A stretch of 64,000 nucleotides of DNA, counting the filler, from Asterionella formosa (lineage: Eukaryota): the NCBI GenBank assembly GCA_002256025.1. It is 14 parts of 14 records of this genome, joined end to end, with 100 filler letters (N's around TTAATTAATTAA, not from the genome) between each part and the next. Parts side by side here need not be neighbours in the genome. Positions count along the whole stretch, not along the records: positions 60,667 to 61,724 come from NKIB01004626.1; 13 more parts are not named here. The stretch is one strand, 5' to 3'. The translations under genes were made by a program, and so were the position numbers. Positions 12,158 to 64,000 of the stretch are shown here, piece after piece. The notes beneath the pieces are model-generated. The model made no database searches. It was not told the DNA's origin and was given only the letters and a program-made list of their open reading frames with translations. Position 1 is the stretch's first letter. Each line of letters opens with the position of its first letter.

Positions 12158-12962
12158 CCGTAAACCCTGGTGTATGATATCCCCCCACGTACCTGTATCC
12201 CCCTTGGTTCACCTGGCGCAACACTCCCAAATATTTTATGTTTACAGAAAAAATTACAGCATATTATTGTATTCTATTTGTTAATACATTTATAGCATAA
12301 TTGCATTCTTACTGGTCAACATCATGAAACAACAATACAAGTGATGCCAATGACATTTGTGATGGCAATTTCCTTGGCCTGAGATATATTTCAACAGTCA
12401 AAGCTGCAAGTTGCAAGCTTGTTGTGGTGCGATTGACAAGCTGAATGCTACAAGCTCAGGCAGTGGTCATGCTGGCCTAGATATTTTCGGCTTGCCAGAA
12501 GTGTTCAAAGAATCATTTCGTCTGCTACCTCATGATGCAGAAATATTTCGCGCAGGTCATAATTCTGGTCCAATAGCTAATTATAGTATAAGTGATGTGG
12601 TTGCTGGCTTATATTAATATCCATCACAATCCAAGTCGTAGAACCTACACAAATTAATACCGCTGTAGGTTGGGTACAAAAGTGTACACACTCTAGGAAT
12701 TACTATAGATGCTATCACGAAACTTGGGCGCACCAGAGCACCAAAAAAAAAATTCTATTGATCATAGAAACTGTTTGAACCTAAAACAATAAATCTTTTA
12801 AAGTTGCGATTTATGTTTAGGACCATGGAGAAAACAGTGGTGAATTTGGTTTGCTCAGAATATTTGGCGATCAAAAAAGGGCCAATGTCTTGTACTCCCC
12901 TCTGAGTAATTCAATCATGACTGGTGTGAACATTGATGGGTGCAAGACATCATGTTTTACAG
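12158..12962. mobile_element. Possible TA-flanked Tc1/mariner/pogo-type non-autonomous element (family D)
   Basis: TA|CCGTAAACCCTGGTGTAT at left; right end reverse-complements to TA|CTGTAAAACATGATGTCT. Imperfect TIR pair. Confidence 0.45.
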
Positions 12963-35428: not shown

Positions 35429-36488
35429 GCACTCAGGATGACTCAGACCCAAATGTTAGAACTACAAGGTCTGGAAGAGTCTCAAGACCACCATCAAAAC
35501 TAACTATGGTCCAAAATCATTTGCATACCCAAGCACACTGTCGAGAAGAATACACGACTGATAATGCGAAAGTGATCGCAAAGACAATGTGTTATATGAA
35601 TGAGATATGTATCGATAAAGAAGCATTTCACTTTGTTCAGTCATACAGCTTAAGGAAAGGCCTCAAGAAATTTGGCCAGAAAGGAAGAGACGCTGCTTAT
35701 AAGGAAATGAAACAACTACATGATAGAGTTGTATTTGAACCGATTAGGATTGAAGACCTAACTGATATCGAAAAGCGACGTGCAATGGAAAGTCTAATTT
35801 TTTTGGTTGAAAAGAGAGACAAGAGCATTAAAGGCAGAGCATGTGCCAATGGCAGTTCGCAACGTGAATACATGGAAAGAGATGAAGCAGCTAGTCCAAC
35901 TACCATGACTGAATCTGTTATGATAACAGCAACAATTGATGCGAAGCAAAATCGCGATGTTATGACTGCAGATATACCCAATGCATTTGTGCAAGTGGAT
36001 ATCGATGAGAAAGAAAAAGGGGAACGAATCATTATGAAGATTAGAGGTTTGCTTGTCAATATGTTGACAGAACTCAGCCCCGAGACTTATGAAAATTATG
36101 TTGTTTATGAAGGGAACAACAAGGTCCTATATGTTAGGATGATCAAGGCATTATATGGCATGTTACAGTCATCATTATTATATTATAAGAAATTTCGGAA
36201 GGATATTGAGTCAATTGGATTCAAGGTAAACCCATATGATCCATGTGTTGCAAATCGCATTGTTAATGGCAAACAGCACACAGTTACTTGGCACGTAGAC
36301 GATTTGAAATCAAGTCACGTGGACAGCAAAGTGAATGATCAATTTTTGGAATGGCTCAAAAAGAAATACGCTTCTGACGAAATTGGTGAAGTCAAGGTCA
36401 TGCGTGGAAAGAAGCATGATTATTTGGCTATGACGCTAGATTACTCTATTCCAGGAGTGTTGAGGGTGGACATGACCAAATATGTGAA
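35429..36488 (+). mobile_element. Ty1/Copia (CoDi-type) reverse transcriptase fragment
   Basis: YSLRKGLKKFG, KGRACANG, DIPNAFVQ, KALYG, NPYDPCV, WHVDD, HDYLAM. Confidence 0.93.
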
Positions 36489-54763: not shown

Positions 54764-54870
54764 GGTGTAGNNNNNNNNNNNNNNNNNNNNNNNNNNNNNN
54801 NNNNNNNNNNNNNNTTAATTAATTAANNNNNNNNNNNNNNNNNNNNNNNNNNNNNNNNNNNNNNNNNNNN

Positions 54871-55930
54871 GGCCCTGAAGTGTCCACGAAAATCCGTTCA
54901 CCGGGTAGTACAGCCTGTACAGTCGACACTTTTGAAACTGCCTTTGCTTTCGCCTTTGCCTTAGAGCATCCGTCACATGACCGGAGGGTACCAGTAAGTT
55001 CTATCTTCAGTGCTTTGAACGTAGCACGTAGTGCGGCTTCCCCAATATGCCCGTAGATATCGTGTGCCTCGTTGATATCCTGTGACTTCATTTTGTCCTC
55101 CCCACTCATAACTGTATGGGTGTTTGTGGACAAGTTTTTGGTACTATCGGCACCCTGGGGCAATGGGGCAATAACCATGGATACGACATCGGCATAACTC
55201 GCGCGACTTCCTTTAAAATAATAGAGAACTCCATTGGTCTCTCTGTTAAATGAAATATGTCCTCCACGACCTTTCTTAACGGTCATAGTAGACCCTGTGA
55301 CTGAAAGGTCAAAACCGTCGCGGATTAGGACGCCCAAACTGACGATGTTCTTGTGAAACTTAGGCGTGTACAGGACATCCTTCAATGTCATAGTCTTCTC
55401 TCCGTTGGTGAGCTTGATGTCACCGCGTTTTGTGCATTTAATTTCCGAGCCATCGCCGACGACAACTGTGACACTGACTGGGCGTACATTTGTCATACCG
55501 ACGTCACTCATCGTGATATGGGCGGTAGCTCCAGTATCAGCGAGCCAATTCTCCTGTGGGGCAATAGAGCGAGGAGCAACAGCAGAGGCACAAAACTCTT
55601 TATTATTAAATTTTACATCACAATCATCAATAATTTCCTCGCAAATACCGACAAAAGTCCACTCTTTATCGTCGTTCTCGTTGTACTTGTCATTCATATC
55701 TTGTTTCTTTTCGTTTGCTTCGATGTCTTCGTAGTCAATTGCACACATGCCAACAAACATGCCGGTCTCTTTCGTTGTAGTACGTTCTCGTTTGGGTTCA
55801 GGGCAATCTTTTGCGATATGTCCCGCATGCTTGTTGCAATTGAAACACTTGACGCCTTTCGGAGGAGGCCTGTTTCCGTCGCCGTGTGTCTTGTTCTTGA
55901 CTCGACAATCGGCTGCCTTGTGTCCTTGCT
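54871..55930 (-). mobile_element. Ty1/Copia gag-pol fragment (zinc knuckle, protease, pre-integrase)
   Basis: CFNCNKHAGHIAKDC, WLADTGATAH, HDIYGH...CDGC, ERIFVD. Confidence 0.92.
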
Positions 55931-59507: not shown

Positions 59508-60566
59508 ACATGACATCTGACAATGTATATGCTGCATCACCAACAAGATAAAAACCAGAATCAAATAATGCAGTTTTGTTGGGTAGAGCAGTTCTCTCAA
59601 ATGCAACTTGATCACTGCATCGTCCAGGAGCAATCACCCCAAAAAATATAAATCTACTCTCAACATCACAGATAGCCTGAACATTGAAACCATAAGTCAT
59701 GTAATGTCCAGAATAAAAAGCTCCTGGATTGTTTCCACAGTCACGTAGCGTGGGGCGACTAATTGTGGCTAAAAACATCAATAGCACCAACACACCCTCT
59801 GATCAACCCTTCTGTGCTCTTTTGTTCAAAGGCTATAGCCAATTTCACCAAATCACTCCTTGTTTTGGGAAATATAATTTTCAGATAATCACAGTTAAGC
59901 ACAGCTTCAAGAAATAAATCTCGGCATCTATAGATTGAAGCTATGCTACATGATCCATAGGCATGACGAATGTCAATGTAGCTGCCTCCAGCCAACCATC
60001 GAATGCCAATGGCCAGCACAATTTCTGGGTAAATGGGAGTAGCTGTACCGCACTTGGAGAAATTTCCAATGACATCACTCTCCAGTAAGTAAACCAACTT
60101 CTTAAAGGCTCGAAGGGACATTCTATAAGTCTTTTCAAAAGCGTCCTCATGACACAGCTTCTTGACATGAGAATGCCATGACATTCTCTCATGCTCCCAT
60201 TTCGCCATCCTCTTTTTAACTTTCGTTTCAGCCTCCAGAGCCAGATGACAAAGGATAAAGAATTGATCATGGTCATCGTAATCAAAGAATTGATGGTTGT
60301 TTTCATTATCAAAAAATTGATTACTGATGATGTCATTACCATCGTTGATATTCACGGCACCTTCTTCAGTCCAATGTTGATCCACTTGTTCGTCATTGTG
60401 CACTGACAATGATGACATGGTGCTGATTGCTTGTAAACCTGAAAGGGGATGATGGCAAGCGGAAGTGTAAGAAGAAGTGTATAGAGGATCTTGCATGTCT
60501 GTGTTGACTCATGGCAAATCAAGAATTAAGCAGGTATGTCAGCTATATATTCCATACTGCTACATA
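59508..60566 (-). mobile_element. PIF/Harbinger transposase (DDE_Tnp_4-like), frameshifted, partial
   Basis: YRMS, IRWLAGGSY, CVGAID, NVQAICD, PGRCSD, LVGDAAY. Frameshift just after GAID at about 59775. Confidence 0.92.
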
Positions 60567-60667
60567 NNNNNNNNNNNNNNNNNNNNNNNNNNNNNNNNNN
60601 NNNNNNNNNNTTAATTAATTAANNNNNNNNNNNNNNNNNNNNNNNNNNNNNNNNNNNNNNNNNNNNC

Positions 60668-60832
60668 ATCGATCCGGAAAGTGGGGAACTCATTCGTCTC
60701 ACAGTAGCCGAAAAGGAGCGTATCTTTCTGGACGCGCTTCAGTCCTACGATGCCACTGGAAGGCAAATGCTCAAGGATGACGAGTTTGACCTACCGGTAT
60801 TGAAGGAAGATTTGCAATGGAACGGATCTGAG
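60668..60832 (+). pseudogene. PGRL1: PGRL1 (PGR5-like 1) fragment with a 6-nt insertion
   Basis: EKERIFLDALQSY...DDEFDL[PV]LKEDLQWNGS matches the PGRL1 motif EFD.LKE.L.W.GS. Homology ends at 60832, followed by a stop. Confidence 0.8.
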
Positions 60833-61841
60833 CATATATATAGCTAAAACAAGGAAAGACGACATTACAATGAACGTGATGGCTGGTTTTTGAGGATACC
60901 GGTATGTGATATGCATCAATCCATATCACAAATCATATTATAGTGATGTACATATCAACGCATCTGTATACTTAGATCCTATCCACTGTATAATACTATC
61001 ATATTAACTGTTGACTTTAACTGTATATATTAAACGACAAACATATATATTAATTAACATACTTTATGATTGCTTGATTTATATTCTGTGATGTATCGAT
61101 AACACTTGCGTACATATTTTATCGTATTTTATTGTCATTGTACTATTTTTACATGATCATATTTTGATCAAAATTATATCATATTTATTTCATAAAATCA
61201 TCATAATTTTAGGATCAATGTATCATAGCTATGTGATGTACTTTATTCAATATTACGTATCATACTTCGGTGATGTATGCATCGATGTAACCTTATCATG
61301 ATATCACAGTATCATCTTATCAATCATGATGAGATGATTGGGAAGCAACTGTATTCTGCATCGTGCTACAGGGTATATTATTATATCACGCAATTTAGTA
61401 GCGAAGTCACTCCGCCTGTAATGTACTAAAGTCGACAGTGCACATACCGGGTACCGGTACTCAAACGCTAATCAGGTTTGAGGCAACGGACAGTGGTTCC
61501 AACGAGCGAATGATGATACCACGGGTACCAATTTTTCCAACGAAAGAACTTGTCTCTCTATTGATGAGGATGACACGGACACGGACACCGACTTTTTCAG
61601 GAGCAAACAACAATGAAGAGACCCACTTGTCGCTCTATTGATGGTAACAAAGATACGGACAAGTTCAACAGTGAATACAAGAACAACATACCATTGAAAA
61701 CAAGTCGACAGTGTGTGCACGCACNNNNNNNNNNNNNNNNNNNNNNNNNNNNNNNNNNNNNNNNNNNNTTAATTAATTAANNNNNNNNNNNNNNNNNNNN
61801 NNNNNNNNNNNNNNNNNNNNNNNNTCACAGATCACTGATAT

Positions 61842-62982: not shown

Positions 62983-64000
62983 CCACCAACGCTCAGAGCT
63001 TGATCTCAAACCATATAGTGCTTTTCGGATGAGAATGATTGATCCCCTCAACTCCTCTCCAAATTCTGGTCCAGCACGGGAGTATACTAGCTCATTAGTG
63101 TATGCATTGACGTAAGCATTTCCAACATCGCCACAAAGCAGCTTCAAGTTCTGCTTGTGTGCAATCACATGTAGCATTCTAACACTTATGCCTTTCACAG
63201 TTGAAGAGTAAATAGATGTCCGCCAGTCACAAGTCTTGCCTTGCGCTGTAGATCTTGTTTGACATCAAAGATCACTGTCAGTGTTGTCCATTGATATCCG
63301 ACTCCAGGGTTAAAATCTGGCTTCTTAAATTCAAAACATTCCATTTCGACAAGTGAGGAGATTTCATGTTTGATTGCCTCTTGCCAGAATGTGTTTCCAC
63401 TTTGCTTGTCCAATTCCATTGCATGGGTGACATTTCGTGGGACCGCAATGCCATACTTGAGAATTTGCTTCCTAATCTTAGGATGCTTCTTCTTTCTTAT
63501 GTCGGCACGCCTCACTGTGTACACCTGATCACATCCATCAAAATGAAGCTCATATAACCTTGCAATTCTTCGGACAGCTCCTTTAATGTCTCGAACTATT
63601 TTCTTTGCCCATGGCATGACTCTATCCAGGCGTTTGGAACGACTGACATTATTGTCTACAATGTATTGTGCTGTCATGTTTGGATGGTCAAGCTTCAAGT
63701 CCTGAAATGATTCCCAGGAGACATTTTCAGTATCCCAGTGCACATCCAACTCAAGTTGCCCGGCCTTCCAGCGATGCGCTCGAATATCAGTTACCCTGGA
63801 ACCACTCATCTTTGTTGCCTCTGTATGCTCTTCAGCTAGCTCATTATTGATCTCATCACACATTTCAATGTCATGTGTTGCGTCAAGTGGATCAAAGTCG
63901 AACTCAACATCATCGGTGTTGGATGGTGGATTTTTTGATATGTTGTTGTCTACTTCTGTTGTAGTGCATTGCTCGTTGTCTACTTCTGTTGTAGTGCATT
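62983..64000 (-). mobile_element. Ty1/Copia (CoDi-type) pol fragment: chromo-like segment then RT, frameshift at about 63198
   Basis: KYGIAVPRNV..A..LD...GNT.W, KARLV.GGH, DVGNAY, KALYGL. 30-bp repeat (QCTTTEVDNE) at 63945-64000. Confidence 0.9.

Follow-up and report, generated by a model that had tools for sequence, protein, structure and literature searches.

That transposons leave footprints when they excise is textbook knowledge, and repeats are likewise known to carry processed pseudogenes and fragments of genes. Elements of the Tc1/mariner type are described as being cut a few bases inside their ends, with the first or last 2-4 bases staying between two TAs (PMC6943129; PMC2874221). Reported scars include taCATGta for Tc1 (cited in PMC3520976) and TACAGTA/TACTGTA for Sleeping Beauty (PMC6943129), and the pogo element Passer is reported to leave footprints of 0-4 bases (PMC9976928). 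Natural excisions in rice, as counted in PMC4423477, were mostly ragged, with 8 of 94 perfect. A word of related form, TACATGTA, occurs as motif-1 in Phytophthora promoters, where the authors read it as a factor-binding site and rejected a Tc1 footprint origin on the basis of its abundance and conservation (PMC3520976). A search of the open-access literature returned no diatom report of the word TACCGGTA or of scars at the density described below.

Here, we describe a gain of the form TA-CCGG-TA in the diatom Asterionella formosa. The window, by which we mean the whole stretch of DNA analysed (64,000 nucleotides, filler included), consists of 14 short contigs joined by N-linkers, taken from a source assembly of 68.4 Mb in 15,436 contigs. 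The gain lies at positions 60792-60799, on a contig of 1,058 bases (C4626, window 60667-61724).

A six-base gain at a TA in a PGRL1-derived repeat

The earlier note had read this site as CCGGTA inserted at a TA inside a conserved PGRL1 motif. The features of the host contig are as follows:

60668..60831, + strand: processed PGRL1 fragment of 54 codons; cut off on the left by the contig start and on the right by the junction to another repeat module (break at contig base 165)
60742..60743, + strand: spliced exon junction LQ/S, at the place of an 85-base GT-AG intron in the intact gene (compared with L026)
60792..60799, strand not applicable: TA-CCGG-TA, six-base gain and probable excision footprint, in frame and giving D-L-P-V-L; in 2 of 93 copies, versus 67 with a plain TA
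60832..61724, + strand: downstream module, rich in AT, of the patchwork repeat; where it matches L005, about 34-67 of the 93 copies share it, depending on the position
60897..60904, strand not applicable: second TACCGGTA, common among repeat copies
61445..61459, strand not applicable: stacked TA-CCGGG-TA-CCGG-TA; L005 is empty, L028 has one unit and the window has two

The translated frame from 60668 runs to ...DDEFDLPVLKEDLQWNGS, after which it drifts and stops; across the insertion it reads EFDLPVLKEDLQWNGS. As a Pfam search of the fragment returned no family, its identity as PGRL1 rests on homologues, of which 233 were found at E<=0.001, one of them named 'PGR5-like protein 1A' and the named ones mostly from diatoms. 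Among the 120 of these that were listed, 116 fit the pattern FD-x-LKEDL-x-W without an insertion, four fall outside it, and none carries Pro-Val. The intact gene was located on another contig (C12690), with a full frame, a leader, the 85-base intron after LQ and the motif GAC CTT TTG. It has neither Pro-Val nor a TA at this position, so that the pair is absent both from the intact locus and from the listed homologues.

The window fragment itself is no functional PGRL1, for which a complete frame, plastid leader, membrane helices and C-terminal cysteine motifs would be expected; its 54 codons are followed by a junction and a stop. A genome search yielded at least 150 copies of the sequence at 88-100% identity (150 scored matches among 261 candidates), in which the intron is precisely absent and the ends are truncated at varied points and fused to other modules, with stops in several. 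Because the intron is absent and the copies are truncated and joined to other modules, the window piece is a processed pseudogene piece inside a high-copy patchwork repeat. It resembles known processed pseudogenes and gene fragments in repeats in its lost intron, its truncation and its many decaying copies, and differs in that at least 150 copies derive from one piece of a photosynthesis gene. Longer copies retain part of the 3' flank before joining other modules, and a comparison of the repeat copies did not identify a carrier of the PGRL1 piece, its ends included. One near full-length intronless copy (L027, C14964:800-1711) has a 304-codon open frame that lacks the plastid leader. The placement within a PGRL1 motif therefore holds by homology, though in a dead, truncated copy rather than a working gene, and nothing follows for PGRL1 function from a motif that sits in such a pseudogene.

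To compare states of the site, 93 repeat copies were fetched. Sixty-seven have the plain state GACCTATT and two have the insertion, while 13 show other single-base states (six GACCTTTT, three GACCAATT, three TACCTATT and one GACCCATT) and 11 were unscored. The two carriers, C4626 and an overlapping contig, are identical over 1,058 bases and therefore represent one event; the closest non-carrier is 97.2% identical. The six extra letters, read in frame as Pro-Val, are thus real, and they are almost certainly an insertion with TA duplication rather than the product of point mutation, as the earlier note had proposed. Its further statement that removing CCGGTA restores GAC CTA TTG AAG needs a qualification: GAC CTA TTG is how the sister pseudocopies read, while the intact gene has GAC CTT TTG. 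Since the intact gene has no TA here, the target arose from a prior silent CTT-to-CTA change in the copied lineage.

A whole-genome search with the left junction gave only two matches, both of them this scar and neither followed by a full element, and the exact allele had 0 matches in a metagenome collection. The second word at 60897..60904 is not polarised, as an empty version was not seen among the copies, while other copies at the stacked site carry a single TA or one unit. The event at 60792 lies in a dead copy and has no functional weight of its own; what it offers is a clean case, polarised by an outgroup, of a process at work throughout the genome. The locus contributes a direction of change set by the intact gene, a rough estimate of rate and a site with three states.

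Several other features of the window were observed. A piece of the same downstream repeat module lies in inverted orientation on a different contig (about 57346-57400), and the frames at 35431-36486, 54870-55928 and 63198-63998 resemble retroelement proteins by eye. The minus strand of 59762-60508 contains a 249-codon frame whose motifs may be those of a PIF/Harbinger nuclease.

Abundance and recurrence of CCGG gains

The word TACCGGTA occurs 45 times in the window, where 0.36 are expected and 0 of 100 shuffles reached as high a count. Across the genome assembly there are 28,528 occurrences, compared to 1,718 for the reversed pattern used as a control, and a 200 kb sample of 15 long contigs contains 104 versus 4.8 expected. 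Stop-to-stop frames of at least 150 codons contain six of the 45 window words and 1,411 of the 3,994 window TAs (35%); judged by eye, each of these six either precedes or coincides with the first Met or belongs to a doubtful frame.

Insertions of 2-12 bases present in a minority of repeat copies were collected as 83 entries, which are not independent events and can be doubled by neighbouring changes. TA is duplicated in 28 of them, and the inserted core is CCGG in 10 of these 28, corresponding to nine different TAs (60792 and eight others) and a single unit added on top of an older unit. Three of these gains lie within PGRL1-derived sequence and change ETN to ETTGN, SYY to SYYRY and DLL to DLPVL, and the first two are also seen in database proteins from other samples (P0002 and P0005). 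Further TA-anchored gains were observed, namely TA-GC-TA (four entries; 64 versus 26.3 expected in 200 kb), TA-G-TA, TA-GAC-TA and TA-TCA-TA, and these are possibly scars of other elements.

The PGRL1 repeat can be treated as a mutation-accumulation panel, which provides a first rough rate of gain. Over 1,091 well-covered columns, CCGG was gained at 6 of 102 TAs and 425 minor substitution alleles were counted, giving approximately 0.06 gains per TA versus 0.39 minor substitutions per site, both of which are lower bounds.

Candidate elements and their proposed relation to the scars

A genome-wide search for the DDE_1 transposase domain gave 93 matches among 116 candidates. One family, here called family A, has the ends CCGTAAAACC, with a TA next to 36 of its 41 distinct ends and complete copies of 2,460, 2,461, 1,433 and 760 bases; a search with its ends gave 114 candidates, and one with an internal stretch gave 34 copies. 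Its transposase matches DDE_1 (PF03184; 77.6 bits against a cut-off of 22, E=1.1e-21) with DD35D spacing (35). At the N terminus, a DNA-binding domain of the HTH_Tnp_Tc5/CENP-B type was sought, and weak matches to HTH_Tnp_1 and BrkDBD, both under cut-off, were obtained. Along approximately 1,955 bases, L021 matches nine other copies at 99.2-100% identity, and the family is therefore young. Judged by its sequence, family A is a TA-targeting DD35D pogo element with terminal inverted repeats CCG...CGG. A DDE_3 search of the genome gave 0 of 16 candidates, a count that does not amount to absence, as even the protein of family A scores above the cut-off for DDE_3. In the family A element on the + strand of L041 (224-2683), a second, Cys/His-bearing frame of 145 codons is convergent with the transposase.

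A second CCG-ended family, with ends CCGTATACTT, was present in 5 of 20 further DDE_1 loci, and a worn end of a family of this kind lies in the window:

12158..12205, + strand: worn terminal inverted repeat of a CCG-ended pogo family, 85% identical to the family end over 48 bases, with a TA and a GGTACC-rich array before it

Additionally, the 200 kb sample contains two TA-flanked CCA...TGG elements (L288:124-861 and L304:7168-8717), each with GG before its left TA, such that these and the two CCG...CGG families all have ends of the form CC...GG. The same sample holds a seven-base class, TA-CCWGG-TA, at 82 versus 3.3 expected; 67 of these 82 words abut GG or CC, compared to 21 of 104 CCGG words. 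From their sequence, the CCA-ended elements with GG before the TA fit as candidates for this class and its arrays. A CAG-ended family is also present, including a complete DDE_1 element with TA on both sides (L012:299-2626), and its expected scars show weak enrichment at most.

The relation between element and scar was examined at L041, where a complete family A element lies inside a dispersed repeat. Among 27 paralogues of the TA that it uses, 21 are empty, three have a mutated TA, two carry TA-CCGG-TA and one has another TA-anchored gain, so that the filled, empty and scarred states occur together among paralogues only. Two other element-used TAs gave no scars in 38 and 25 paralogues, respectively, with a few aligned off site. 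Pooled, scars occupy 2 of 90 paralogues at the three element-used TAs versus 3 of 1,555 at other TAs (one-sided Fisher p=0.027), a weak difference carried by one site. Contigs from four public runs aligned to L041 displayed filled, empty (X2) and scar-like (X1) joints; for X1, which joins 224 to 2681, a reading as excision at L041 itself was set aside, since the scarred paralogues L176 and L192 explain the joint equally well. A dispersed repeat has one paralogue (L190, C6306) into which a short CCCTAA tract, similar to telomere sequence, has been inserted.

No locus with both a full element and a scar was seen at the 60792 site, at L041 or at the two other element-used TAs, the flanks of two young insertions showed empty or mutated sites only, and no TA-CC break point indicating a full element was seen among those listed for the 93 repeat copies. 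The flank preferences of scars and element ends showed no clear agreement overall: G precedes the TA at 0.35 of scars and 0.36 of element ends (36 ends), compared to 0.26 of all TAs, and the other positions did not correspond clearly. The three-base scar TACCGTA is weakly enriched (28 versus 14.4 expected) and absent among repeat polymorphisms. The link between element and scar is accordingly circumstantial.

Mechanism, alternatives and known systems

We consider it probable that the gain at 60792 is the excision footprint of a CC-ended element of the pogo type (pogo/Tc1-mariner); the earlier note had proposed no agent. Of the elements observed, the two pogo families with CCG ends are the likeliest source, and CCA-ended elements could give TACCGGTA by the two-base route. 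The proposed series of events starts from what the copies record, namely that a copy of PGRL1 from which the intron had been spliced became part of a patchwork repeat now present in at least 150 places, with the silent CTT-to-CTA change making the TA. A TA-targeting element with CC...GG ends would then have entered this TA in one copy, duplicating it, and its transposase, by the known chemistry, would have excised it to leave short 3' overhangs of its ends. Joining may have proceeded by filling of two 2-base overhangs, or two CCG overhangs may have paired through their self-complementary CG; either way the product would be TA-CCGG-TA, which would explain the uniform core. Other TAs of the repeat show the same gain, which is scarce in coding DNA, and the six-base scar persists at 60792 because the copy is dead. 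With some 27,000 scars compared to 93 DDE_1 matches and 114 family A end candidates, this course requires very high turnover. Long clonal growth, in which each excision is inherited, could reconcile the excess and uniformity of scars with excision.

That same excess is one argument for a different origin, in which a host or transposase-linked activity writes CCGG at a cut TA without a complete cycle of insertion and excision, either because integration aborts or because a repair polymerase fills the cut from a template. The scars exceed the elements by orders of magnitude, the core is uniform, element and scar were never seen at one locus, and the rate of gain is high, all of which would suit direct writing. 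We nevertheless regard it as improbable: the core corresponds exactly to the ends of resident TA-targeting elements, the abundant TA-CCWGG-TA class has its counterpart in the CCA-ended elements of that 200 kb sample, and we know of no host activity that writes CCGG at a cut TA. Replication slippage or local templated duplication is a much less probable source of the six bases. Tandem duplications account for 23 of the 83 minority entries, and in one case a CCGG unit was added to a unit already present, whereas 9 of the 10 CCGG entries, that at 60792 among them, do not copy the sequence beside them, with flanks that vary around a constant core. Slippage is thus largely refuted for isolated insertions, although it could still explain the growth of GGTACC arrays, given how many CCWGG words abut GG or CC.

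Slightly less credible still is the idea that TACCGGTA is a selected protein-binding motif that owes its abundance to selection, as proposed for TACATGTA in Phytophthora. The word is palindromic and scarce in long frames, yet selection does not explain ready-made six-base gains in dead pseudocopies, and coding scarcity is expected from purifying selection against insertions; later co-option of the word as a motif is possible. An assembly or library artefact, which the single event shared by two identical contigs and the missing metagenome match might suggest, is hardly conceivable. Sister insertions occur in proteins from other public samples, CCGG scars are common to up to 10 diverged copies, and TACCAGTA/TACTGGTA number 61 versus 12 expected in the 200 kb sample (L286-L305), an excess that is probably CpG decay of the scar.

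Beyond the excision reading of this one site, we tentatively raise a broader view, which is rather unlikely as it stands. Hit-and-run transposition, or a transposase-linked reaction leaving no element, might be a main mutation class in this diatom, with a TA gaining CCGG at roughly 15% of the per-base substitution rate, and with a product of six bases, uniform and in frame, that CG-end pairing determines, perhaps aided by the element's second gene. If so, coding DNA would acquire new Pro-Val, Arg-Tyr or Thr-Gly pairs, and the abundant TA-NNNN-TA 'promoter motifs' described in other stramenopiles, TACATGTA among them, could be scars of a similar nature. Confirmation of the excision footprints themselves would make them a record of past transposition far beyond the element count, and would counsel caution before abundant palindromes are named regulatory motifs.

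Among the footprints described for Tc1/mariner elements, taCATGta of Tc1 is an exact 2+2 analogue of TA-CCGG-TA, and the likeness lies in terminal element bases held between two TAs after end-joining. The differences here, with respect to the footprints so described, are the core CCGG and its excess over control by approximately 27,000 copies in a genome found in nature; the self-complementary CG may additionally make the scar uniform. By analogy with Sleeping Beauty, the three-base scar TACCGTA would be expected, and here it is only weakly enriched. Compared to the rice excisions, which were mostly ragged, the scars are nearly uniform, which counts against the excision reading. As far as the pogo DD35D elements Passer (PMC9976928) and Bogo of Blepharisma (PMC9942856) are described, family A shares with them the DDE_1 domain, the DD35D spacing, short terminal inverted repeats and non-autonomous derivatives, and is distinguished by its CCGTA ends, its TA target (Bogo uses TAA; PMC9942856) and its convergent 145-codon second frame. 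Finally, like TACATGTA of Phytophthora as presented in PMC3520976, TACCGGTA is a very abundant TA-NNNN-TA palindrome in the non-coding DNA of a stramenopile, and differs from that account in that its insertion polymorphism is shown directly.
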